A stretch of 60,274 nucleotides of DNA, from assembly GCA_043805415.1 (NCBI GenBank), contig JAZDHZ010000010.1, positions 1-60,274 of the forward strand, written 5' to 3'. The DNA is from Candidatus Omnitrophota bacterium (lineage in GTDB: Bacteria; Omnitrophota; Gorgyraeia; B26-G9). The translations under genes and the position numbers were made by a program. Of this stretch, positions 47,343 to 60,094 are shown piece by piece. How positions within the stretch are numbered: the stretch's first letter is position 1; each line of letters opens with the position of its first letter. The notes under the pieces are model-generated. The model saw only the letters and a list, made by a program, of their open reading frames with translations, was not told the origin of the DNA and did not search any database.

Positions 47343-47431
<89 letters not shown>

Positions 47432-47849: not shown

Positions 47850-47878
47850 TTGACATGTCGGGATTGTTTGTATATAAT
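47850..47878 (+). promoter_or_regulatory. Consensus sigma70 promoter (TTGACA-17-TATAAT) of the lexA-like gene, with a direct-repeat candidate operator
   Basis: TTGACA at 47850..47855 and TATAAT at 47873..47878. TTTGTATATA occurs twice (47865..47874 and 47878..47887), overlapping the -10. The ATG at 47888 is only about 10 nt downstream, giving a leaderless or near-leaderless mRNA. Confidence 0.6.
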
Positions 47879-47887
47879 TTTGTATAT

Positions 47888-48517
47888 ATGAAATTAGCAA
47901 TAAAACTAACCCAGAAACAGGAAGAGTTTTTTAATATTTTAGCGGATTATATTCGCCGAGAAAAAATTCCTCCTACCAATCGGGAAATTCTAAAAATGAT
48001 GGGATTAAAATCTCCCCGTAGCATCGCCCAGTATTTAGACGCTCTTGAACAAGGTGAATATATAAAACGAGGGAAGGGCGCCAGGAATATTAAAATTCTT
48101 AAGTCTCCATATGATAATAATGGCGCTGGTAAAACAGTTAAAGTCCCTGTGTTAGGGGATGTCTCCTGCGGGACTCCTTTATTGGCTGAGGAAAATATTG
48201 AAACACAAATCTCTGTTTCTGAAAAAATAGCGAAACCGCCATATAAATATTTTATCCTTCGAGTGGTTGGGGATAGCATGAATAAGGCAGGGATAAATGA
48301 GGGTGATTTGGTTTTAGTTCGCCAACAATTGACCGCTAATAATGGAGATATAGTCGTGGCTTTGATCGATGATGAAGCGACCATAAAAAAGTTACGTTTA
48401 CATGAAGAACATATAACACTTGAACCAAATTCAACTAACCCAAAACATTATCCGATAGTTTTAGAGCGGGATTTTGGAATACAGGGTATTGTGGTTAGAT
48501 CTATGTCGGAATTATAA
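47888..48517 (+). CDS. lexA: LexA-like repressor (LexA wHTH + S24 peptidase)
   Basis: LTQKQEEFFNILADYIRREKIPPTNREILKMMGLKSPRSIAQYLDALEQGEYIKR (LexA DNA-binding domain). Cleavage-site region VLGDVSCGTP. Catalytic GDSM and KK(L). Confidence 0.85.
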   Translation: MKLAIKLTQKQEEFFNILADYIRREKIPPTNREILKMMGLKSPRSIAQYLDALEQGEYIKRGKGARNIKILKSPYDNNGAGKTVKVPVLGDVSCGTPLLAEENIETQISVSEKIAKPPYKYFILRVVGDSMNKAGINEGDLVLVRQQLTANNGDIVVALIDDEATIKKLRLHEEHITLEPNSTNPKHYPIVLERDFGIQGIVVRSMSEL

Positions 48518-48616: not shown

Positions 48617-48636
48617 AAAAACATTTGGGGGTAATT

Positions 48637-49644
48637 ATGAGAGTTAAATCAGCATATAGAGTTGTTTCTCTTTTCTCCGGTTGCGGAGGATTAGATCTGG
48701 GTTTTAGAGGTGGCTTTAAGTCTTTAGGTAAAAATTACTCAAAGCTGAATTACAATCTTGAGTGGGCTAATGATTTTAATCCGGAAGCTTGTTTGACCTT
48801 TCAGAAGTATTTTGGTGATCATATCGTTCATGGTGATATAACTGAAATTCTTAAAGGGATTAAACAAAATTCATTGTTTGATAAACCTTTGCCTGAAAAA
48901 GCGGATATAGTTTTAGGCGGGTTTCCTTGTCAGGATTTTAGTCACGCTGGCAAAAGACTTGGTTTTACCAGTAAGCGTGGCGTTTTATACCTGAGTATGA
49001 TTGAAGTTATAAAAAAAACTAAGCCCTATGTTTTCGTGGCTGAAAATGTTAGAGGCTTACTCACAATAAATAACGGTGAAGCGATAAAGACTATTATCCG
49101 GGATTTTGAGGCTTTAGGATATAATGTTGTTCCTAATTTATATCTGGCGGCGAATTATGGAGTGCCTCAGAGTCGCGAAAGAGTGATTCTTGTGGGAACA
49201 AGAAAAGACGTATTGCCGCCATTTGAGCATCCTCAACCAATTTTAAACAAAAATACCTGGATATCCGTTGAGAAAGCCATAGCTGATTTGGTTAACGAGA
49301 AAGAAGGATCTATTCCTAATCATTTTTGGTCAAAAGCTAAAAAAAATAAAGGGCAAGGGAATAATAATATTGATAAAGATAGACCTGCCCCAACAATGAG
49401 AGCCGAACATCATGGAAATATTGAATGGTTATGGAACGGGCAAAGAAGGTTGTCAGCCCGAGAAGCGGCGCGGATTCAATCATTTCCTGATGATTTTATT
49501 TTTCATCCATCAACTTCAAGCGCTTATAAGCAAATAGGCAACGCTGTTCCTCCCGTGCTTGGTTGGCATGTTGCTAAAGCGATTCAAGCTTTTCTTGATA
49601 AAAATTTACAAAAGGAATTAGAGTATGATTTGTGCTCGTGTTAA
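48637..49644 (+). CDS. DNA (cytosine-5)-methyltransferase
   Basis: Motif I LFSGCGGLDLGF, motif IV GGFPCQDFSHAGK, motif VI ENVRGL, motif VIII QSRERV, motif X GNAVPPVL. The ATG at 48637 follows a GGGGG RBS. Confidence 0.95.
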   Translation: MRVKSAYRVVSLFSGCGGLDLGFRGGFKSLGKNYSKLNYNLEWANDFNPEACLTFQKYFGDHIVHGDITEILKGIKQNSLFDKPLPEKADIVLGGFPCQDFSHAGKRLGFTSKRGVLYLSMIEVIKKTKPYVFVAENVRGLLTINNGEAIKTIIRDFEALGYNVVPNLYLAANYGVPQSRERVILVGTRKDVLPPFEHPQPILNKNTWISVEKAIADLVNEKEGSIPNHFWSKAKKNKGQGNNNIDKDRPAPTMRAEHHGNIEWLWNGQRRLSAREAARIQSFPDDFIFHPSTSSAYKQIGNAVPPVLGWHVAKAIQAFLDKNLQKELEYDLCSC

Positions 49645-50755
49645 TGACGCTCCTGAGGGTGATTTTGTTGAATTATTAAGAAAAACTCGAGATGTTATTT
49701 TTGAACATTTCAAAACAACTCCCGCGGAATTAAAAAAAATAAAAGCGGTTGAGTTTGAAACTTTAGTGTGTAAGAGCGCTGAAAAAGCAGCTAAAGGAAC
49801 TATTTTTGAGGGTAAAATAGAACAAACTGGGATTCACGCTTTTCCTGATATTATCGCTAGAAAATATTATGGAATAGAGGTTAAAACAACTACCGCGGAC
49901 AAATGGGTATCAACCGGCAATAGCGTGCTGGAAAGTACTCGCCAGGATAGCGTTGAAAGAATATATTTATTTTTCGCCAAATTCGGTGGAACTTTCGACG
50001 TGAAATATAGGTTATATCAGGAATGTCTTTATGAGATAGCGGTTACTCATTCCCCAAGGTATCAAATCAATATGGATTTAAGTGAAGGCCAAACTATTTT
50101 TGATAAGCTTGATATCGCTTATGATGAATTACGCTATCTGGAAAAACCAGTAAAACCAATTATTGAATATTACAGAAAATTGACGAAGCCCGGAGAAGAA
50201 ACCTGGTGGATGGAAGGTTCTGATTCGCAGGAAACGACTTTGAAGCCGATTGTTTCAATGTGGAAATATTTAGACGCTGAAACACAGAAAAATATCAGAG
50301 CGGAAGCTATGGCTCTGTTTCCGGAAATATTCAGTAATAAAACGACAAAATTTCAAAGATTACTTCCCTGGCTCGCCGCTAAGCATGGCGTGGTTATCCC
50401 CGCTGTGCGGGATATATTCACGGCTGGCGGGCAAATAAAATATACGATAAAAGGCGTTAATTATAAAAAATTACCCAAAATCTTTCATTATTTAGAAGAA
50501 AATTTTTCCATAGTTTTGGGGTATGTTAAAAAGATGACTCCTTCAGACGTTAAATATTATTGGCAAATCAATGAAGAAGTTGGGCAATACACGATTATTG
50601 ATCAATGGTGCGATTCTGTTATCGAGAACGCTAGTTTAGCGCTTAAGCGTAATAGACAGTTTATTGTGCATCTTTTGGCGGAAAAATTAGGCAAGAAAGG
50701 ATCATCATCTTTAGTAAAAGAAGAAATGAGTAAATATGGATTAGATTTTGACTGA
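49625..50755 (+). CDS. Type II restriction endonuclease candidate (PD-(D/E)XK)
   Basis: FPDIIARKYYGIEVKTT gives PD...E-V-K. It overlaps the methyltransferase gene by 20 nt and abuts vsr. Specificity unknown. Confidence 0.65.
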   Translation: MICARVNDAPEGDFVELLRKTRDVIFEHFKTTPAELKKIKAVEFETLVCKSAEKAAKGTIFEGKIEQTGIHAFPDIIARKYYGIEVKTTTADKWVSTGNSVLESTRQDSVERIYLFFAKFGGTFDVKYRLYQECLYEIAVTHSPRYQINMDLSEGQTIFDKLDIAYDELRYLEKPVKPIIEYYRKLTKPGEETWWMEGSDSQETTLKPIVSMWKYLDAETQKNIRAEAMALFPEIFSNKTTKFQRLLPWLAAKHGVVIPAVRDIFTAGGQIKYTIKGVNYKKLPKIFHYLEENFSIVLGYVKKMTPSDVKYYWQINEEVGQYTIIDQWCDSVIENASLALKRNRQFIVHLLAEKLGKKGSSSLVKEEMSKYGLDFD

Positions 50756-51225
50756 TGAAAAAAAAGATTAAAAACTATTCAGGTCGAAACTTTAAAAAAG
50801 ACAGATCTAATGACAAAATATCAAAGAAGAATCGTTCTTCTTTGATGGCTAAAATCCGCTCAAAAAATACTAAATTCGAAGAAGAATTTATAAACCTACT
50901 TAGAAAATTCACGCGAAAAAAATTCAAAACACACGTTACTGATATTAAGGGAAAACCAGATATAGTGTTTAATAATGCTAAGATCTGCGTTTTCTTAGAT
51001 AGTGATTTCTGGCATGGATGGCAATATCCAAGATGGAAACATTTGCTTAAAAATGATTTCTGGCGTGACAAGATAGAACGTAATCGAAGTAGGGATAAGA
51101 AAAATTCAAAGTTATTGAAAAAAGCGGGGTGGATTGTTATTAGGATTTGGGAGCATAATATTAAAAAAGATGTAAATCCTGTGATTGAAAGAATTATCGA
51201 AAAGATAGATAATAGGGGTGTTTGA
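50755..51225 (+). CDS. vsr: Very short patch repair endonuclease Vsr
   Basis: RSSLMAKIRSKNTKFE, GKPDIVFNNAKICVFLDSDFWHGW, FWRDKIERNRSRD and GWIVIRIWEH. The start shares one base with the upstream stop. Confidence 0.92.
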   Translation: MKKKIKNYSGRNFKKDRSNDKISKKNRSSLMAKIRSKNTKFEEEFINLLRKFTRKKFKTHVTDIKGKPDIVFNNAKICVFLDSDFWHGWQYPRWKHLLKNDFWRDKIERNRSRDKKNSKLLKKAGWIVIRIWEHNIKKDVNPVIERIIEKIDNRGV

Positions 51226-51719
51226 TGTCAGGAATAGGGCATGTGGGTGAAATTGACGTGATAGAATATCTTACAAAACAACACAAAATGGATATATGTT
51301 TACCATTTAAAGATAAGGGCTTAGGTTTTATTGGGCTAAATAATGGTAATCATTTTGAGTTTCAGGTTAAGACATCTAAGTTTCAAAAAGGGAGTTATTT
51401 CTGGTTTGATATTTATAAAAGTAAAATGATTTATTCTGATAAAACCTTCTATGTTTTTGTGTGCTTTACTATGCCTAGAAGACAATTTATGCAGAGCAAG
51501 AGGAATTTCTTTTTAGTTCCATCAATGCAGTTAAAAAAATGGATAGATAGGAAAGAGCTTTCTTCAAAGAAAGGTAACGATAATTGTTTTAATATTTTTC
51601 TTTATCCAAATGAAAAAGAAAAAACGTGGATTTATAAAAACAAAGGGAAATACTTTGATTGGACAAAATATTGGAATAATTTTGAGTGCTTAGAATATGG
51701 GACCTACGATCATAACTAA
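51225..51719 (+). CDS. Small hypothetical protein, possible PD-(D/E)XK (DUF4365/Mrr-like) fold
   Basis: GHVGEIDVIEYLTKQHKMDICLPFKDKGLGFIG...FEFQVKTS resembles the GxxGE...D...(E/Q)xK core. The ATG shares the A of the vsr TGA. Confidence 0.4.
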   Translation: MSGIGHVGEIDVIEYLTKQHKMDICLPFKDKGLGFIGLNNGNHFEFQVKTSKFQKGSYFWFDIYKSKMIYSDKTFYVFVCFTMPRRQFMQSKRNFFLVPSMQLKKWIDRKELSSKKGNDNCFNIFLYPNEKEKTWIYKNKGKYFDWTKYWNNFECLEYGTYDHN

Positions 51720-51736
51720 ACTACAGGAGGTTGAAT

Positions 51737-52735
51737 ATGTTTGAAAGGAATTTAACTAGGCAAACAATCGCATGGTTTTATGACCACATAAAGAGGAATC
51801 AGATGAACCTTCAGCCTCCTTATCAGCGCAAAAGTGTCTGGAGCAGGTCATACAAAAGGTATTTTATCGACACAATTTTACATAACTATTCTTCTCCTCC
51901 CATATTTTTGAATCATATAATAGGTTCGGATGGGGTTGTGAAGTATGAGGTTGTTGACGGAAGACAAAGACTAGAAGCAATAGTTTCTTTTATTGAGGGG
52001 GAAATTCCCGTAACTAGTAATTTTGGAGATGCGACTGTTGACAATAAATACTTTCAAGAATTAACGGATGATGCAAAGAAAAAATTTTGGAATTACCTGA
52101 TGTCTGTGGAAGATTTATCTGATCCGAGCCCAGCAATTATAAAAGAAACTTTTGATCGCCTTAATAGAAATGTTGCTAAGTTAACGTCTCAAGAATTAAG
52201 GCATGCAAGATATTCTGGAACCTTCATTGCCTTAATATCTGCAATAGCAGATGATCCTTTCTGGGAGGACAATGATCTGAGTAGACCCGCAACAATTAGA
52301 AGGATGAAAGATGTTGAGTTTATTTCAGAATTATTTCTCCTTACAATGCATGGTATTCAGAAAACTACTAAGGATGAACTGGATTTTTTCTACTCTGAAT
52401 ATGATGAAGAAATCCCGGAAGAAAAAAAACATAGAAAAGCTTTTAAGTGGATCCAGTCACAGATAGAGGCAATGGGTTTGAATATTTCGGGGACTCGGTT
52501 AAAAAACTACTCAGATTTTTATTCTCTTTGGGCTGCTTTTTTAGCATTATATGGTAGAAGTATAGATTTGATAGAAACTAAAAAAGCATTAACAGATTTC
52601 TTTTCTAAAATAGAAAGCAAAAGTAAATCTAAAGATATGATTAATTACTTAGAAACTGTAAAATCTCAACCTAATGAGGAAAAGAATCGAAGCGCAAGAG
52701 CAGAAATCTTAAAAGTATTGATAAAAACCAAATGA
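51737..52735 (+). CDS. DUF262 (ParB-like/GmrS-like) domain protein without a DUF1524 nuclease half
   Basis: QPPYQRKSVWSRSYKRYFIDTIL, VVDGRQRLEAI (a DGQQR-type motif) and FDRLNRNVAKLTSQELRHARY. AGGAGG sits 6 nt upstream of the ATG at 51737. Confidence 0.8.
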   Translation: MFERNLTRQTIAWFYDHIKRNQMNLQPPYQRKSVWSRSYKRYFIDTILHNYSSPPIFLNHIIGSDGVVKYEVVDGRQRLEAIVSFIEGEIPVTSNFGDATVDNKYFQELTDDAKKKFWNYLMSVEDLSDPSPAIIKETFDRLNRNVAKLTSQELRHARYSGTFIALISAIADDPFWEDNDLSRPATIRRMKDVEFISELFLLTMHGIQKTTKDELDFFYSEYDEEIPEEKKHRKAFKWIQSQIEAMGLNISGTRLKNYSDFYSLWAAFLALYGRSIDLIETKKALTDFFSKIESKSKSKDMINYLETVKSQPNEEKNRSARAEILKVLIKTK

Positions 52736-53679
52736 TAATTTCAAATTCAATCTCAGAACTTTATGAAGGCATTCGTAGGGAATTGGTATTAATGAAACCT
52801 GATATTGATACTATCTTGGGCCCATTGGCGGAACAATTTGATGGTTTTTTTATTAGCCGGATTAAGGGGCTAGAAAGTTTTGCGCAGAAAATTGAAACGG
52901 GGCAGGCTTGGAAACCAAATGAAATTATAGACTTATATGCCGCAACAATAGTTGTGCCCACATTTAAAGAAATGGAAAAAATTGAGGTTTTGTTAAAAAC
53001 AGATTTTAAGGTTTTAAAGACATTTTCTAATAGGAATAAAAAACCTACAGATTTTATTTACGATGATAAACATGTTCATCTGCAATATAAACATCAAGTT
53101 ACTCCTGGGAAAGAATACTTAGCTAAGCGGTTTGAATTGCAAATTAAGACTTTTTTGCAGCATGGATGGGCTAAAGCAACTCATGATATTTTATATAAAG
53201 GAGATCAGTTGGAATGGCCTCGATTTCGAGTTGCTGCGCAAATTAAAGCGATGCTTGAACAGTCGGATCAAATTCTTTTTGCCATAGATAAATCGTCATT
53301 GTTATGTGAAGACAATGGGCTCAATGAATATAAAGATCAGAATGTTTTGATAAAAATCATGAAAGATAAGTGGGATGTTAGCCAATTGCCTTCAAATATT
53401 AGAGGTACAGCTCAAGCCGTCTATGATTTACTGTGCATTAGTAATCAACCTATGGCTAAGTTAGTAGAATTAATTGAACTCGGCTGTCATGCTGATCTGG
53501 TAGACTCAAAGAGTTTAACGCCACACCAAGCGTTCTTAGGTATTCTTATTAGATTAGATGTAGATAGTTTGCGTGAGGGCCTAAAGAGAGCAAACAAAAA
53601 GATATTTATTTCTAATGAGTTAAAAGATTTGTTAGGAATAATCCCTGGGGATATTTTGGCAATGAGCATAAAAGTATAA
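52732..53679 (+). CDS. Divergent RelA/SpoT-homologue (RSH) nucleotidyltransferase-fold protein, toxSAS/CapRel-like
   Basis: SRIKGLESFAQKIE, IIDLYAATIVV and FELQIKTFLQHGWAKATHDILYK (the EhQhrT..qh.WA...H...YK core). It has a C-terminal extension of about 140 aa. The start overlaps the DUF262 stop (ATGA). Confidence 0.65.
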   Translation: MIISNSISELYEGIRRELVLMKPDIDTILGPLAEQFDGFFISRIKGLESFAQKIETGQAWKPNEIIDLYAATIVVPTFKEMEKIEVLLKTDFKVLKTFSNRNKKPTDFIYDDKHVHLQYKHQVTPGKEYLAKRFELQIKTFLQHGWAKATHDILYKGDQLEWPRFRVAAQIKAMLEQSDQILFAIDKSSLLCEDNGLNEYKDQNVLIKIMKDKWDVSQLPSNIRGTAQAVYDLLCISNQPMAKLVELIELGCHADLVDSKSLTPHQAFLGILIRLDVDSLREGLKRANKKIFISNELKDLLGIIPGDILAMSIKV

Positions 53680-53744
53680 ATAAAGGGGACAGGGTGAGCT
53701 AGCCCGGGTTTGCCATTGGATCATAGATAGAGATTGGGGGATTT

Positions 53745-53933
53745 GTGGATGATGATATAATTGAGCAAATTAAAAAACTTGAAGAAGAGGTTATTAACTT
53801 AAGAAAGCAAATTGAGAGTTTCCAGAATAAAGCGATGATAGTAGGTAATGACTTTAGGAAAGAAATAAGAAACTTAGAATGGAAAGAAATTAAACTGAGT
53901 AAAAAAATAAGCGATTTAAAGAAAAACCTATAG
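53745..53933 (+). CDS. Small coiled-coil protein (hypothetical)
   Basis: 62 aa, GTG start after a GGGGGA RBS, heptad-like IEQIKKLEEEVINLRKQIESFQNK. It may not be a real gene. Confidence 0.3.
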   Translation: MDDDIIEQIKKLEEEVINLRKQIESFQNKAMIVGNDFRKEIRNLEWKEIKLSKKISDLKKNL

Positions 53934-54083
53934 AATACCTTTTGCTAAATTGCTAATAGGTGAAAATTGGGTTAGCAAAGTAAATGGGGTTAGTCCTAAA
54001 CTATGGGGGTGGGTAGGGGACAACGAAGTTTAAAGATTTAAAGTTATTAATAAAATTGAATTTTTCATTGAGGGATATTGATA

Positions 54084-55106
54084 ATGGCAAAAAAGAGAAC
54101 CTCTGAAAAAATTACTTATGAAATTGATCCGTATAATCGGTTGATCATCGACAAAAGTGGTAAAAAAAGCGAACTTTCCCGGTTCAGACAGGTTCTTGAC
54201 GGGCGCTTTAAAATTGATGAAGATAATACACTTACATACCTTATAAAAGCACCCACTCCAGAAGGAACAGAACTCCCGCATCAAGTAAAACTCGAAGGCG
54301 TTTGGTCTTTAGATAAGGACCATAATCTCTGCCTCGAGCTTAATAAGTGGGGCAGGGAGACTCTGGGCGATAAATTAACGCTACAGGGTGAAATTATCGA
54401 TACTTCCAAAAATTCCTTAGCTTTTAGCCTTACTACCCGCACTCAAGATAATATGCAGTCAATCTATATTCTTCAGCTTAAAGGCGCATGGCAGGCAGAT
54501 AAAAATAATCGTCTTACATTTCGAGTTCAAAAAGAAGAAGGCAGTCATGACATTCTTACTTTTAAAGGGACTTGGGAAATAAACAAACAGCATCAGATTA
54601 TTTATCAATACGAAAAAGCTCAGCTGGTCCGCAAAGAGAAAAATATTCATATTCTAACATTTCAAGGTTATTGGGATATTAAAGATAAAGGAAGATTGTC
54701 TTATGTTTTGGATTTGCAGTCTGATTCTGTGTTTAGTTTTAAAACCAGCGTGGCAGTATTTAAAGATAAATACATTAAATATGAATTAGGCATTGGTTTG
54801 TCCAAAAGTTTAGAAGAGCAGATAATTACGCTTTGCGGTAAATGGAAAATTAAAAAAGATATCGGCTTGGTATTTGAAGTGGAATATGAAAATGGAAATA
54901 TTCGGGCAATTACTTTTGGGGCGGAAGCAAAGTTAAGCGCAAGAGACAGTATAAGTTTTGAATTGAAGAACGATCAGAATAAAAATATCAGCGCTCAATT
55001 ACAGCTTTCCCGAAAGATATTAGATGGAGAAGGATTATCGTTTTTGCGGTTTTTAAAGTCGAAGGAGGAAACAGCGGTGTATGTCGGCGCAGGTTTTCGT
55101 TGGTGA
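54084..55106 (+). CDS. Cytoplasmic beta-rich protein built from about 7 degenerate repeats (unknown family)
   Basis: Repeats: LDGRFKIDEDNTLTYLI / LEGVWSLDKDHNLCLEL / LQGEIIDTSKNSLAFSL / LKGAWQADKNNRLTFRV / FKGTWEINKQHQIIYQY / FQGYWDIKDKGRLSYVL / LCGKWKIKKDIGLVFEV. No signal peptide. It ends in GAGFRW. Confidence 0.6.
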   Translation: MAKKRTSEKITYEIDPYNRLIIDKSGKKSELSRFRQVLDGRFKIDEDNTLTYLIKAPTPEGTELPHQVKLEGVWSLDKDHNLCLELNKWGRETLGDKLTLQGEIIDTSKNSLAFSLTTRTQDNMQSIYILQLKGAWQADKNNRLTFRVQKEEGSHDILTFKGTWEINKQHQIIYQYEKAQLVRKEKNIHILTFQGYWDIKDKGRLSYVLDLQSDSVFSFKTSVAVFKDKYIKYELGIGLSKSLEEQIITLCGKWKIKKDIGLVFEVEYENGNIRAITFGAEAKLSARDSISFELKNDQNKNISAQLQLSRKILDGEGLSFLRFLKSKEETAVYVGAGFRW

Positions 55107-55163
55107 ATAAAGCATGATAAACACTGATTGAGAGAATGATGAACACAGATATAGGAGGGTGAA

Positions 55164-55949
55164 ATGATAAAAAGACTTGGATGCCTTAAGGATGAATTTA
55201 GTGGGAAGGATTATTTGATGCGGGCGTATTTGCCGATAATGAAATTGCCAAAAAAAATTGATTATACATCCAAGTTATCACCAGTCAGAGATCAAGGTGA
55301 TGAAGGCACTTGTGTAAGCTTTGCCAGTGCTAGCGGAATGAAAGAGTATCAGGAAATGCAGGATTACTCCAAGTTTATCGAGCTTTCCCCGAGATATATT
55401 TATAGTGAATGTAAAAAGATAGACGGCATGCCAGAAGACGAAGGAACAACACTTCGCGCGGCAATGCAGGTGCTGAATAAAAAAGGAGTGTGTCAGGAAA
55501 AGTTTTGGCCATATCAGCCGCATCAAACAAACAAAGCCAAGACAGGGTTTGCGGCTAATGCCAAGAAATTTCAGATAAAAACTTATGCCCGGATACTTAA
55601 TTTGAGCGAATTACGTTTGAATTTGGTAACTTTTGGACCTTGTATTATTGGTGTGGAGGTTTTTGAAGGGATGATGACTACTAAAACCGGCATTGTTCCT
55701 ATGCCCAAGAAAAATGAAAGAGTCTTAGGCGGGCACGCGATTTGCCCGGTAGGTTATGATGACACTAAGAAACTGATCAAATTTAAAAACTCTTGGTCAG
55801 AGCAATGGGGGCAGAAAGGCTATGGATTTTTGCCTTATGCTTATATTGATAAATACATGATGGATGCCTGGAGTTCAGTTGATATTGAGGATGAAAATCC
55901 AATGACTTTGGCGAGTGTGTTGCAATTCGCTGAGAAGCGAATTAGCTGA
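55164..55949 (+). CDS. Papain-like cysteine peptidase (family C1) lacking both signal peptide and prodomain
   Basis: RDQGDEGTCVSFA (oxyanion Gln + catalytic Cys at residue 50), GGHAICPVGYDD (His) and IKFKNSWSEQWGQKGYGFLPY (Asn-Ser-Trp). Confidence 0.88.
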   Translation: MIKRLGCLKDEFSGKDYLMRAYLPIMKLPKKIDYTSKLSPVRDQGDEGTCVSFASASGMKEYQEMQDYSKFIELSPRYIYSECKKIDGMPEDEGTTLRAAMQVLNKKGVCQEKFWPYQPHQTNKAKTGFAANAKKFQIKTYARILNLSELRLNLVTFGPCIIGVEVFEGMMTTKTGIVPMPKKNERVLGGHAICPVGYDDTKKLIKFKNSWSEQWGQKGYGFLPYAYIDKYMMDAWSSVDIEDENPMTLASVLQFAEKRIS

Positions 55950-55988
55950 TGGCTCATGGCTGATAGCTTATACAGAAAAGGGAAAGTT

Positions 55989-56759
55989 ATGATAAATGTG
56001 ATCTTTATCCATGGGATTAATTATCAGACTACTGGATATAGCAATTGGTTGTTTCAGAATATTCTTTGTGAGTATGGAAAAATCTTAAAGAAAAAAGGGA
56101 TTGCTCAGGAAGAAATAGAACAGAAAAAGGCTCAATTTATCCAAAAAGAAATTATTTGGGCTGATGTTACCACTGATTTGACTAACCGTTATCTGAATTT
56201 AGAATACGAGCTTTTTGGCAAGAAAAAGGGCTTTTGGAATTGGGCTTCAAAGAAAGTTGATCCTTTAGCTTTACAGATAATGTATTACATTAAGGATAAG
56301 GGAGATAAGAATTCTGGGGAAATGGACATTTTGGAGAAGGTGGATCGAGCGTTTCATTCCAGCACTCAAGAAGCAAATGATACAATCGTTATTGCTCATT
56401 CTCTGGGTAGTGTAATTGCTTTTGATTATTTGTTCAGTTTTAGAAAATATTATTTAGACCCAAAGGTAAATGTAGTATCGTTTATCACTTTAGGTTCGCC
56501 AATCCCGATATTTATCTCTGCTATGGGGCATGTTGAATCGGAGCTAGTCTTACCTGCGAATATTAAAGCTTGGCATAATCTTTATGATAATGAAGATGGC
56601 ATAGCCAGAAGATGCAAGCCTTTCTTTCCAAAGATAGATATCCAGGAGGTCGGCGTAAGAACCGGATTCTTTCCAATCAGTGCGCATGTGAAATATTGGC
56701 AGAATAAACAAACAGCTTCGAAAATAGCAAAGATCCTTGCGGGTAATGATAAACGCTGA
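55989..56759 (+). CDS. Alpha/beta-hydrolase-fold serine hydrolase (lipase/esterase-like)
   Basis: VIFIHGIN (oxyanion region) and the nucleophile elbow IVIAHSLGSVIAFDYL (GxSxG-type). Candidate acid and His residues are in NLYDNEDG and ISAHVKYW. The ATG at 55989 is preferred over 55956, which lies in a repeat word. Confidence 0.7.
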   Translation: MINVIFIHGINYQTTGYSNWLFQNILCEYGKILKKKGIAQEEIEQKKAQFIQKEIIWADVTTDLTNRYLNLEYELFGKKKGFWNWASKKVDPLALQIMYYIKDKGDKNSGEMDILEKVDRAFHSSTQEANDTIVIAHSLGSVIAFDYLFSFRKYYLDPKVNVVSFITLGSPIPIFISAMGHVESELVLPANIKAWHNLYDNEDGIARRCKPFFPKIDIQEVGVRTGFFPISAHVKYWQNKQTASKIAKILAGNDKR

Positions 56760-58076: not shown

Positions 58077-58865
58077 ATGAATATATTTGAAGGCCAAATA
58101 AGAAACGCAAAAAAAGCTTACGAATGGCGCAGCTTTATCCCTAATAATTTAAAAAACTATTTAGATTTTCGTTCTAAGGCGACAGGGATAACTCTGGTTT
58201 CATTATTTGATTTTGCACCGATGAGAGGGATTAATGTAAATAGCGATAATATAAAATTTATAATGGAGACTTTAACAAAAGAGCAGGATTTTTTGCTTAG
58301 CCCAAATAAAGATGATGATAAGAAAAGAGCAATCTTAGAAAAATTAAAGTTTAAATCAAGACTTGCGACCAAAGAAGAGTATTTAGAAGAAGATGTTCAA
58401 GCATTTTTAGTAAGAGAAATTCTTAGTTCTGAAAACAATGCTAAAAATATCGCTCAGAAAATCATTGAGGAGTGCAAACTATCCAGCTTAAAATATTTAG
58501 CTTCAGAATTTGAATGGAGCGAACAAGGCAAAAAAGACAGGGTTGATATTTTGTGCTGCGATGGCGGGGATTATAACAAACTATTAATAATTGAGCTTAA
58601 AAAAGTACGCACAACAAAACTAGAGCAGGCACGCTATTTAAAGATTTTTAAAGAACATGAAACTGAAATCAAAAAATTTGTTGCAGTATTAACAGGTAAA
58701 GAAGTAGACGCATGCCGGACAGATATAAAAATTATATATCTGATGCCAAGCCATCCGCGATTAGATAAAAACATGTGGGTAAAAGTGATAAAGGAGCAGG
58801 GGGTAGATGGGATAATTTTTTATAATACCGGATATCCGTTTGACTGCGCAGTGTTTGAAAAATGA
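58077..58865 (+). CDS. PD-(D/E)XK nuclease-fold protein (NucS/DUF91-like core)
   Basis: ASEFEWSEQGKKDRVDILCCDGGDYNKLLIIELKKVR gives E...D...ExK, as in the NucS C-terminal domain. Confidence 0.55.
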   Translation: MNIFEGQIRNAKKAYEWRSFIPNNLKNYLDFRSKATGITLVSLFDFAPMRGINVNSDNIKFIMETLTKEQDFLLSPNKDDDKKRAILEKLKFKSRLATKEEYLEEDVQAFLVREILSSENNAKNIAQKIIEECKLSSLKYLASEFEWSEQGKKDRVDILCCDGGDYNKLLIIELKKVRTTKLEQARYLKIFKEHETEIKKFVAVLTGKEVDACRTDIKIIYLMPSHPRLDKNMWVKVIKEQGVDGIIFYNTGYPFDCAVFEK

Positions 58866-60094
58866 AAAATTTGAAGTTAATAATCCATAGAGGCACCCAG
58901 GAAATAGGCGGAAGCTGTGTTGAGTTTAAAACTGAAAATACTCGGCTGTTGATTGATTTTGGCCTGCCTCTTGTTGAAAATGACAAAAGATCCTTTGATC
59001 TAAAAACAATCATAAGTAAAAAAATAGATGGTATCTTGATTTCGCACGCGCATCTGGATCATTATGGGTTGTTGCAGTTTATTGATTCTAAGATCCCGGT
59101 TTATATGAGCCAGGGAGCAAAAAGTTTAATAGATGTTTCAAAGCTTTTTCTGCCTGTAAAAATCGGCAATATAAATACATTTATAATTAAAAATAAGGAA
59201 TCTGTTCAGATTGGGGATTTTACAATTACGCCTTATTTAGTTGATCATTCTGCTTTTGACGCCTTTGCTTTTTTAATCGAGGCGCAAGGTAAAAGGCTGT
59301 TTTATTCTGGCGATTTTCGGGCGCATGGGCGAAAATCAAAGTTATTTAAATATCTGGTCGAAAATCCCCCTAAAGATATTGACTGTTTACTTATGGAAGG
59401 TTCAGCGCTCGGCAGAGAGGATGCTCAATATAAAACTGAGACAGAAGTAGAAAAACGGCTTATAGAAATTTTAAAGGAGAGGGAGAACATCACTTTTTTG
59501 TTTGCCTCATCCCAAAATATCGATAGGATAGTCTCCGCATACCGGGCATGTCTTAGGACTGATTCGATTTTTGTTATTGATATTTATACTGCTTTTATTT
59601 TGGATAAATTGAGTAAAGTTTCTAAAAGGATCCCGCAATTTAACTGGAAGAATATAAGAGTGAAATTTCTTAAGTCGCATGCCAATGCACTTGTAAAAGC
59701 AGGATATAGAGATTTACTTTTAGCTTATAATAAACGCAAAATTGATATGACTGAAATCAATCTTAAGAAGAATAAAATTCTTATGCTAGCTCGAAATAAT
59801 TCTGTTTTTCCTTTAATTTTAAAGGGAGTTAAGGGAGCAAGAGGGGCAAGAATAGCATATTCTATGTGGGATGGTTATCTTACCGAAGAATTTAGAAAAT
59901 TCTGTAAAGGCAAAGGGGTAAAACTGGAATATATTCATACAAGCGGGCATGCAACAACGGAAGACCTTAAAACGTTCGCTTCTGCGTTAAAGCCAAGAAA
60001 ATTGATACCAATACATACTTTTGATGCCGGAAAATATCCTGATTTGTTTGAAAATGTAAAGATATTGCAGGATGGAGAAGAATTGGTTATATGA
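58862..60094 (+). CDS. Metallo-beta-lactamase-fold / beta-CASP-like nuclease
   Basis: GGSCVEFKTENTRLLIDFG, ILISHAHLDHYG (HxHxDH), YSGDFRAHG and HTSGHATTEDLKTFASALKPRKLIPIHT (beta-CASP motif C-like). The start overlaps the upstream stop (ATGA). Confidence 0.75.
   Translation: MKNLKLIIHRGTQEIGGSCVEFKTENTRLLIDFGLPLVENDKRSFDLKTIISKKIDGILISHAHLDHYGLLQFIDSKIPVYMSQGAKSLIDVSKLFLPVKIGNINTFIIKNKESVQIGDFTITPYLVDHSAFDAFAFLIEAQGKRLFYSGDFRAHGRKSKLFKYLVENPPKDIDCLLMEGSALGREDAQYKTETEVEKRLIEILKERENITFLFASSQNIDRIVSAYRACLRTDSIFVIDIYTAFILDKLSKVSKRIPQFNWKNIRVKFLKSHANALVKAGYRDLLLAYNKRKIDMTEINLKKNKILMLARNNSVFPLILKGVKGARGARIAYSMWDGYLTEEFRKFCKGKGVKLEYIHTSGHATTEDLKTFASALKPRKLIPIHTFDAGKYPDLFENVKILQDGEELVI

Follow-up and report, generated by a model that had tools for sequence, protein, structure and literature searches.

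The stretch of DNA considered here is contig JAZDHZ010000010.1 of the Candidatus Omnitrophota bacterium assembly GCA_043805415.1, read on its forward strand from position 1 to 60,274, and the whole of this stretch is referred to as the window. Between positions 51,737 and 53,679 it carries two adjoining genes, one encoding a protein of the DUF262 family and the other a RelA/SpoT homologue (RSH), and it is this pair, a candidate defence module, that is the subject of the present analysis. The two genes and the ribosome-binding site in front of them are arranged as follows:

51725..51730, forward strand: AGGAGG ribosome-binding site, 6 nt before the ATG of the DUF262 gene, read directly in the sequence
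51737..52735, forward strand: DUF262/ParB-like nucleoside triphosphatase (NTPase) with a helical C-terminal domain, 332 aa, ATG at 51737, 17 nt past the stop codon of the preceding gene orf165; predicted NTP-dependent DNA sensor or regulator
52732..53679, forward strand: RSH, a toxSAS-like nucleotidyl/pyrophosphotransferase, 315 aa; predicted effector

The four letters ATGA at 52732-52735 are common to the stop codon of the DUF262 gene and the start codon of the RSH gene. An earlier, sequence-only reading of the window had placed the two among four closely spaced open reading frames (ORFs) on the same strand, and direct reading of the sequence bears out all of its coordinates and junctions, as well as the ribosome-binding site.

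That DUF262 and RSH form one functional unit is almost certain. Three long contigs, from an unclassified metagenome-assembled genome (MAG), a Terriglobus and a Microbacterium, all carry DUF262 followed by RSH. A pattern scan over one genome per GTDB species returned 108 RSH relatives, of which 80, from many phyla and one archaeal MAG, were kept, and the census of loci comprises 89 non-redundant loci, with one further locus (L098) added afterwards. Wherever upstream sequence is available, virtually every locus has a DUF262 homologue directly ahead of RSH and in the same orientation, the usual distance between the two being -14 to +11 nt; the automatic count found it beside 80 of 91 RSH ORFs, the rest being start-codon overcalls, two contig ends (L011 and L067) and a few lesions. 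The upstream genes belong to the same subfamily as the window protein (phmmer E 1e-45 to 1e-65), and retrieval in the reverse direction, starting from DUF262 homologues of 38-78 % identity, led in six out of six loci to a RelA_SpoT gene of 315-319 aa directly downstream. Pairwise distances among the DUF262 proteins correlate with those among their RSH partners (r = 0.894, n = 80; none of 1000 permutations reached this value), while the host phyla are scrambled relative to the pair, and since the distances co-vary across scrambled host taxonomy the pair must be inherited and transferred as a unit. The adjacency thus recurs in unrelated genomes.

An exhaustive profile search yielded about 430 RSH representatives at 50 % identity (E <= 1e-30), almost all of them 315-335 aa long, and hundreds of full-length homologues of each protein establish that both ORFs are real genes rather than chance ORFs. 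The hosts comprise at least 108 species-representative genomes, among them Actinomycetota, Bacteroidota, Cyanobacteria, Planctomycetota and one archaeal MAG. The pair is horizontally mobile; its other neighbours include genes for an integrase, RepSA, AbiEii, DUF4238 and DpnII as well as insertion sequence (IS) elements. A phage origin was rejected, as only three matches occur in 2.9 million viral contigs, one of them decayed, and BFVD holds no full-length match. No Rosetta-stone fusion of DUF262 with RSH was found among the best 150 of the approximately 430 representatives, which span 205-496 aa and are mostly of 315-335 aa. One apparent DUF262 protein of 1360 aa (L034) was set aside as probably a start-codon overcall, its DUF262 domain lying at 1027-1168 and its N-terminal 1000 aa giving no Pfam match. 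In a thaumarchaeal MAG, Candidatus Nitrosopelagicus (L046), a gene for a fused PstI-type methyltransferase-restriction enzyme is followed by DUF262 and then by RSH, an arrangement that suggests inter-domain transfer or is possibly a binning artefact.

The first protein of the pair had been read as carrying a DUF262 signature without the DUF1524 half, and it does: Pfam assigns it to GmrSD_N/DUF262 (E 8e-18, 65.7 bits against a cutoff of 33.2), no Pfam match to a DUF1524/HNH domain occurs in this ORF or in the neighbouring genes, and the motifs quoted in that reading are the ones that are invariant in the family. Three NTPase motifs are without variation in an alignment of 37 relatives, namely QRxxxW (Q30-R31...W35), DGxQR (D74-G75-x-Q77-R78) and FxRLNxN (F139-x-R141-x-N143-R144-N145). 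The AlphaFold (AF2) model, with a predicted local distance difference test score (pLDDT) of 88, shows an alpha/beta N-domain and a C-terminal half that is all helical. As a sequence search against PDB chains gave no match, comparison of folds was required: Foldseek against the PDB places BrxU, of the GmrSD family, at the top, followed by the CTP-dependent clamps ParB, Noc and KorB and by sulfiredoxin. Among the PADLOC models, NsnA of the Menshen system matches the protein with E 3e-31 over profile positions 52-282 of 385 (1e-32 to 4e-33 for the DUF262 proteins of relatives), and PD-T4-2_A matches residues 20-283 more weakly, with E 4e-19. An architecture of ParB-DUF262 followed by a ParB-associated DNA-binding domain has been reported for NsnA, DndB, GmrSD and SspE (PMC12065111), and the window protein has the NsnA-like form of it, ParB-DUF262 plus a helical domain, without any nuclease. 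A further PADLOC model, PDLC03418, labelled a type II restriction enzyme, matches the DUF262 N-domain of the window protein and of its relatives (E 6e-10 to 1e-14), which implies that some "type II restriction endonucleases" derived from REBASE would in fact be DUF262 proteins, possibly mis-assigned neighbours of methyltransferases.

The RelA/SpoT synthetase core of the second protein is equally secure, with a Pfam RelA_SpoT match above the cutoff (E 1.8e-12, 48 bits against 27) and an AF2 model (pLDDT 88.4) whose N-domain is matched by Foldseek to SAS1 of B. subtilis (5dec) at a template-modelling (TM) score of 0.77, normalised to SAS1, and also to CapRel, RelP, Tas1 and FaRel2. The protein consists of a catalytic N-domain (residues ~1-190) and a family-specific C-domain (~195-315), the latter with W214, P220 and P264 conserved within the family; the C-terminal extension that had been estimated at about 140 aa is therefore present, measuring ~120 aa and being all helical. 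Residues K45, K53, E55, D67, E135, Q137, T140, Y155 and K156 are invariant across the family and S49 is conserved, so that the ATP-binding motif RxKxxxSxxxK, the Mg-binding aspartate (the D of DxxGxR) and the catalytic ExQxKT...H..YK are all kept; here too the motifs picked out in the sequence-only reading are family-invariant ones. Because these motifs are invariant, the RSH is very probably an active enzyme, as far as its sequence can tell. The DxxGxR strand, described as degenerate, is so throughout the family: D67 is invariant, the glycine is replaced by A70 and the arginine by T72. A second family-wide departure concerns the acceptor side of the active site, where the G-loop of RelP, RelQ and CapRel (G-Y-R/S-S/G-x-H) is exchanged family-wide for an invariant F108-x-Y/F110-D111-D112. 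The acceptor may be a nucleotide or a tRNA.

A profile search against PDB sequences gives CapRel as the nearest solved relative of the RSH (E 5e-8, marginally above RelP and RelQ), a distant one, in that the match covers the catalytic core only and ends at RSH residue ~149; superposition on CapRel likewise holds for the N-domain only (root-mean-square deviation ~14 Å over 235-258 columns). The PADLOC candidate PDC-S33 was rejected as the identity of the RSH, its match being weak in all members (E 1e-5 to 1e-10) and confined to the catalytic core. The C-domain has a net charge of -2 in the window protein and a median of +0.5, near neutral, in the family, and an acidic DNA-mimic C-domain in the style of Pag1B from the PANGU system was rejected on these charges; nor is the catalytic domain basic overall, its median net charge being about 0. 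In a Bryobacterales MAG the RSH ORF (L063:7959-10649) runs on for ~570 extra C-terminal residues without a Pfam match, either a genuine fusion or the result of a lost stop codon.

In the window the pair stands behind a restriction-modification (R-M) unit made up of genes for a DNA methyltransferase (MTase), a restriction endonuclease (REase) and a Vsr protein:

48625-49644, forward strand: C5 DNA methyltransferase (Pfam DNA_methylase 6e-74; PADLOC MTase_II 9e-98); context, outside the core
49625-50755, forward strand: type II REase, recognised by PADLOC alone (REase_II 6e-37); context, outside the core
50755-51225, forward strand: Vsr (Pfam Vsr 7e-16; PADLOC Vsr 1.5e-13); context, outside the core
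48625..51225, forward strand: the R-M unit as a whole (M-R-Vsr), directly upstream of orf165 and the pair

The sequence-only reading had spoken of a module fused onto an R-M-Vsr operon, which is true of the window, yet this turns out to be one instance of a much stronger rule, defence or R-M contexts being usual across the family. An N6-adenine MTase (N6A MTase) of the Eco57I/N6_Mtase clan lies within 4.5 kb of the pair in 77 of the 89 loci, mostly abutting it. Among these 77, a PstI/BsuBI-type MTase plus REase is present in 27, an MTase and REase fused in one protein in 6, an Eco57I-type IIG enzyme together with an M.Eco57I-like MTase, often with a helix-turn-helix (HTH) C-protein, in 12, and an MTase with no recognised REase in 32, of which 14 have an N6_Mtase gene of ~440 aa situated 2-105 nt from the DUF262 start. 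The MTase-only loci were not accepted as proof of an R-M arrangement free of nuclease, since unrecognised type II REases may be present. Of the 12 loci without an N6A MTase, four are cut by contig ends and three have an R-M system with a C5 MTase (the window, L001 and L092); the remaining ones are the free-standing pairs L089-L091 and L056, and L074, which has none in the 2.7 kb available upstream. In L098, outside the census, the pair lies in an island with R-M genes of the DpnII type (N4/N6). The linkage exceeds generic clustering in defence islands. To some extent the type of R-M system goes with position in the DUF262 tree (concordance between nearest neighbours 0.57, 0.11 when shuffled), while closely related pairs, with DUF262 proteins more than 50 % identical, adjoin differing R-M architectures, all within the Eco57I/PstI MTase clan, which argues for repeated re-association of the pair with MTase-bearing loci. 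The clade of the window itself is basal, with a DUF262 protein of ~332 aa and an RSH of ~316 aa. It lacks the N6A linkage, and in it the pair may stand alone beside an integrase or RepSA gene (L089-L091), so that the two genes appear to be sufficient as a unit. In this clade a functional link between the window's R-M unit and the pair is possible.

The linkage to MTases allows three readings: that the pair is a second line behind restriction, that it is gated by methylation, or that it is guarded by the R-M proteins in the manner of PrrC. A generic second line is our best estimate for the window's clade. Under methylation gating, the pair would belong to an R-M-like system without a nuclease, in which the linked MTase marks self DNA and DUF262 reads the same sites, firing the RSH on unmethylated foreign sites, or in which self-methylation licenses activity; on this view the MTase would be a third, integral part of the system in most family members. 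This agrees with the frequency and closeness of the N6A linkage, with the 32 loci in which no REase is recognisable and the ~440-aa MTase abutting DUF262 in 14 of them, with the confinement of the varied R-M architectures beside close pairs to a single MTase clan, with the partial tracking of the DUF262 tree by R-M type, and with the precedent of SspE, whose activity is licensed by phosphorothioate (PMC12065111, PMC10952713). It sits poorly with the window's own clade, where L089-L091 have no adjacent MTase and other pairs stand beside unrelated types, C5 in the window, L001 and L092 and DpnII/N4-N6 in L098, so that the pair can exist without a dedicated MTase; furthermore, the differing MTase architectures beside DUF262 proteins that are more than 50 % identical speak against tight matching of specificity, and type II REases are so diverse with respect to Pfam that apparently MTase-only loci may conceal nucleases. 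Taken together, we consider methylation gating unlikely. We would be similarly hesitant to suppose that methylation status is turned directly into a nucleotide- or tRNA-based arrest signal by a ParB-fold clamp or sensor and an RSH of novel acceptor specificity.

The guard reading holds that R-M or MTase proteins silence the pair and that a phage anti-restriction factor frees it, with shutdown of translation or metabolism as the consequence. Embedding in or abutment on R-M loci recalls the position of prrC within ecoprrI (for the PrrC paradigm see PMC12707154), an NTPase module joined to an effector that targets translation or metabolism is paralleled by the NTPase and anticodon nuclease of PrrC, and CapRel, nearest to the RSH in sequence among solved proteins, pyrophosphorylates tRNA. 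Most partners of the pair, by contrast, are lone MTases or else type II systems of the PstI-like or IIG kind, and pairs without any such partner occur (L089-L091). Dedicated phage inhibitors are less established for type II PstI-like and IIG systems and for lone MTases. To our knowledge the DUF262 fold, which binds DNA and NTP, has no protein-guard role, and a guard of the PrrC kind is in our view very unlikely.

A different line of evidence comes from damaged loci. In five loci the DUF262 gene is disrupted and the RSH apparently intact, and in one locus (L070) the reverse is found. Three of the DUF262 lesions are single in-frame TAA nonsense codons (L008:7721, L021:3684 and L037:7371), the fourth is a frameshift beside an intact RSH (L063), and in the fifth, on a contig from a viral collection, a small mobile unit encoding a serine resolvase and an N4/N6 DNA methyltransferase is inserted in DUF262, again with RSH intact (L086:4531-5934); the RSH lesion is likewise a single in-frame TAA (L070:4292). 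It is curious that the four independent nonsense codons are uniformly TAA in genes that are otherwise well conserved. Our interpretation of these codons is pseudogenisation of a costly system, and the overall frequency of lesions, about 8 % of loci, fits a costly or toxic one. The imbalance of five to one towards loci with a broken DUF262 and an intact RSH speaks, in a small way, for DUF262 as an activator more than as an antitoxin.

The same lesions bear on the simplest alternative, a plain toxin-antitoxin or addiction system, in which the RSH would be a constitutive toxSAS toxin, DUF262 an antitoxin acting by sequestration or by hydrolysis of the toxic nucleotide, and the role of the pair to stabilise mobile R-M islands instead of sensing phage. 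Reportedly, toxSAS toxin-antitoxin systems were described by Jimmy et al. in 2020. The gene order with a 4-nt overlap is typical of antitoxin-toxin operons, diverse unrelated antitoxins of toxSAS toxins are documented (PMC7229694), the pair is mobile and found near integrases and IS elements, and inactivating lesions at the observed rate are what costly toxic genes should accumulate. Five intact RSH genes beside a broken DUF262 would nevertheless be unexpected if DUF262 were needed for survival; besides, a conserved NTPase of 330-360 aa with invariant catalytic motifs is far more elaborate than typical antitoxins, and wherever a system with a homologous DUF262 protein has been characterised, that protein acts as sensor or regulator (PMC12065111, PMC10952713). 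We therefore hold plain toxin-antitoxin action to be quite unlikely. A role outside defence, in which the pair would make a signalling nucleotide to adjust the expression of R-M genes, the repair of DNA or its replication once methylation is out of balance, is scarcely credible: it can draw on the persistent MTase linkage and the unusual acceptor pocket only, and is opposed by the patchy and horizontally scrambled distribution of the pair, its location in islands, its frequent pseudogenisation and the lack of linkage to housekeeping genes.

The reading that we prefer is that the pair is a defence or exclusion module, which is probable, and, with somewhat better than even confidence from sequence and analogy, that DUF262 is the switch and RSH the effector, the sensor activating the effector. 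The domain identities, the conserved catalytic and NTPase motifs, the strict adjacency, the co-evolution and the R-M linkage are direct results; what we infer, namely that DNA is sensed, that the sensor activates and does not act as an antitoxin, which product is made and that phages are countered, can be set out as a series of steps. Gene 1 encodes a ParB-fold NTPase with a helical, probably DNA-binding domain, which would bind DNA and use NTP binding or hydrolysis as its switch. Gene 2, translationally coupled to it, supplies an RSH with an intact site for ATP as pyrophosphate donor and an unusual acceptor pocket, whose helical C-domain most likely docks on the DUF262 protein. In the resting state the RSH would be inactive; when the DUF262 protein meets a DNA cue, most likely foreign DNA in the wrong state of modification, the RSH would be switched on and would take pyrophosphate from ATP and hand it to the 3' end of tRNA or to a nucleotide, in the latter case with an alarmone-type product and a drain on ATP as the result. 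Growth would stop, and infection or the establishment of the incoming DNA would be aborted, the pair in R-M loci thereby serving as a non-nucleolytic second line behind restriction. Precedents exist for each half of this scheme. DUF262 senses DNA or its modification and drives a linked effector in GmrSD, BrxU and SspE, and is an essential component, presumed to be the sensor, in Menshen, Dazbog and PD-T4-2 (PMC12065111, PMC10952713). The toxSAS enzymes arrest growth through synthesis of (pp)pApp or (p)ppGpp or through pyrophosphorylation of tRNA (PMC7229694; bioRxiv 10.64898/2026.04.06.716658), and in PANGU a DNA-bound sensor allosterically activates a toxSAS via its C-terminal domain, neither protein being toxic alone (bioRxiv 10.64898/2026.04.06.716658).

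Several observations weigh against this scheme. The order of the genes, with a small partner ahead of the RSH and codons shared between them, is also how antitoxin-toxin operons are classically laid out. The argument from lesions, which draws on mostly MAG assemblies and on truncations that possibly still function, deserves low weight. The C-domain of the RSH is near neutral (the family median given above), in contrast to the acidic DNA mimic of PANGU, so that the activation mechanism of the latter is not simply transferable, and the alteration of the acceptor loop to F-x-Y/F-D-D makes the substrate of the RSH unpredictable. As to the second-line role, three of the eight loci examined in clade A, the window's own (L089-L091), have no such MTase linkage, and where N6A linkage does exist it suggests a tie to methylation more specific than a generic second line.

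Around the pair and its R-M unit the window holds the following further features:

47343-47431: tRNA-Ser(gga) gene, immediately preceding the low-GC island
51225-51719, forward strand: orf165 (PD-ExK-like), whose ATG at 51225 begins with the A of the vsr stop codon TGA (51223-51225)
53745-53933, forward strand: 62-aa coiled-coil ORF, GTG start at 53745, after a 65-nt gap behind RSH

The GC content across the block is 0.33-0.36 as against about 0.40 around it, and as the low-GC stretch begins just past the tRNA-Ser gene the block is best seen as an acquired island. No tRNA-derived direct repeat marking an island boundary was found within the window, which places the far boundary beyond 60274.

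The two small ORFs had been thought of as accessory or antitoxin parts, a suggestion that has to be given up because neither has a homologue in other pair loci. The 62-aa ORF has none in 97 loci (L001-L097), and among the same loci homologues of orf165 are confined to L093-L096, which were fetched through them, and are never beside the pair. Instead, orf165 belongs to a real gene family of ~160 aa (68 clusters at about 55 % identity), one relative of which carries a PD-(D/E)xK domain (PF11645); the family is an independent cassette that occurs without the pair, next to integrases or further genes of islands or among runs of small ORFs (L095, L096), and orf165 may itself be a defence candidate consisting of one gene. 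In L093 and L094 its relatives lie near a Trypco2 gene and a GmrSD_N gene of 555 aa. The closest relative of the window locus, L097, with a DUF262 protein 78 % identical, has in the position of orf165 a DUF4365 gene (829-1143), also of a PD-(D/E)xK family and without detectable homology to orf165 (BLASTP E 25).

Other genes of the island may be mentioned in passing. It is headed by a gene for a LexA/S24-peptidase-type repressor (47855-48517), at the start of which lies a perfect sigma-70 consensus promoter (12/12, 47850-47878). Downstream of the pair, the stretch 54078-56759 encodes in succession a protein of 342 aa, a C1 cysteine peptidase of the papain family (55164-55949) and a protein of 267 aa, the first and last without a family match. 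Further on, a 262-aa protein with no family match (58077-58865) overlaps by 4 nt, going by the ORF coordinates, a 410-aa beta-CASP protein of the metallo-beta-lactamase (MBL) fold, RNase J-like (58862-60094), which NCBIfam relates weakly to Cas14, a type VII CRISPR-associated protein; the two (58077-60094) may make up a second two-gene candidate for defence within this island.

As the sequence-only reading supposed, no name for the pairing came to light. PADLOC v2 has no model covering the RSH family and leaves the pair undetected, a full-text literature search, outside which many subscription papers lie, returned no description of a DUF262-RelA/SpoT pairing, and a survey centred on Menshen states that further DUF262-centred systems exist without naming this one (PMC12065111). 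Provisionally, then, a known class of sensor is joined to a known class of effector in a combination and a genomic linkage not previously reported. If the proposed mechanism is right, stand-alone DUF262 sensors would have a third class of effector, a pyrophosphotransferase after the His-Me nucleases and the HEPN/BECR RNases, and the pair would be the second case after PANGU of a DNA-bound sensor turning on a toxSAS. The near-obligate attachment to N6A MTase or R-M genes offers a testable link between surveillance of DNA methylation and an alarmone-type or tRNA-targeting arrest, the changed acceptor pocket, F-x-Y-D-D, may point to an RSH substrate not seen before, and the annotation "R-M + hypothetical + GTP pyrophosphokinase" that many loci carry at present could be revised.

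Comparison with characterised systems helps to place the pair. The earlier proposal was of a GmrSD-type architecture in which the nuclease had been swapped for an RSH; the idea of an RSH on a DUF262 sensor is fair, but the closest architecture is that of the two-gene PD-T4-2/NsnA type and not the fused GmrSD. With GmrSD, BrxU and SspE, which are often found near R-M, BREX or Ssp loci, the window protein shares the DUF262 NTPase domain with its DGxQR motif, and BrxU is its best structural match; unlike them it has no DUF1524 His-Me nuclease, and its predicted output is growth arrest by the RSH, not cleavage of DNA. PD-T4-2 is reportedly a two-gene system of DUF262 and HEPN proteins from the work of Vassallo et al. 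in 2022. The same composition is given in PMC12065111 and PMC10952713, and the stand-alone DUF262 protein with a helical C-domain and no DUF1524, next to a separate gene for a toxic-type effector, is common to both. The effector of the window, however, is of the RelA/SpoT fold and not a HEPN (PF18735) RNase, no match to HEPN or PD-T4-2_B was found, and the sensor scores better against NsnA. Menshen (NsnABC), whose NsnA is the best PADLOC match and has the same ParB-DUF262 and helical DNA-binding-domain architecture, differs in turn by its other components: neither the ABC-ATPase NsnB (AAA_15/DUF3696) nor the inPIN nuclease NsnC is present in the window or in the 89 related loci, and the downstream gene is RelA_SpoT.

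On the side of the effector, CapRel(SJ46), FaRel, FaRel2, PhRel2 and Tas1 have the synthetase fold and the catalytic residues in common with the RSH, which differs in having an all-helical C-domain in place of a fused pseudo-zinc-finger antitoxin or sensor domain, in its partner, a DUF262 NTPase and not a small antitoxin or a small alarmone hydrolase (SAH), and in the change of the G-loop to F-x-Y/F-D-D. PrrC in EcoprrI offers a likeness of position and logic, a suicide effector that does not cut DNA (as predicted for the pair) under an NTPase regulator, within or abutting an R-M locus, as in 77 of the 89 loci and in the window behind M-R-Vsr; the protein families are unrelated, and its guard mechanism is for the pair only a rival reading. 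PANGU type I, composed of Pag1A, a YejK-like nucleoid-associated protein (NAP), and Pag1B/GRel, is likewise bicistronic and joins a DNA-bound sensor, such as is predicted for the window pair, to a toxSAS with a catalytic N-domain and an extra C-domain, and its activation logic fits the pattern of lesions in the DUF262-RSH pair. It differs in its sensor (a YejK NAP as opposed to a ParB/DUF262 NTPase), in its C-domain (an acidic DNA mimic as opposed to a neutral helical domain) and in its acceptor loop, and linkage to MTases, strong in the DUF262-RSH pair, is unreported for it. The pair is thus most like PD-T4-2 and Menshen on the side of the sensor, and most like PANGU on the side of the effector.

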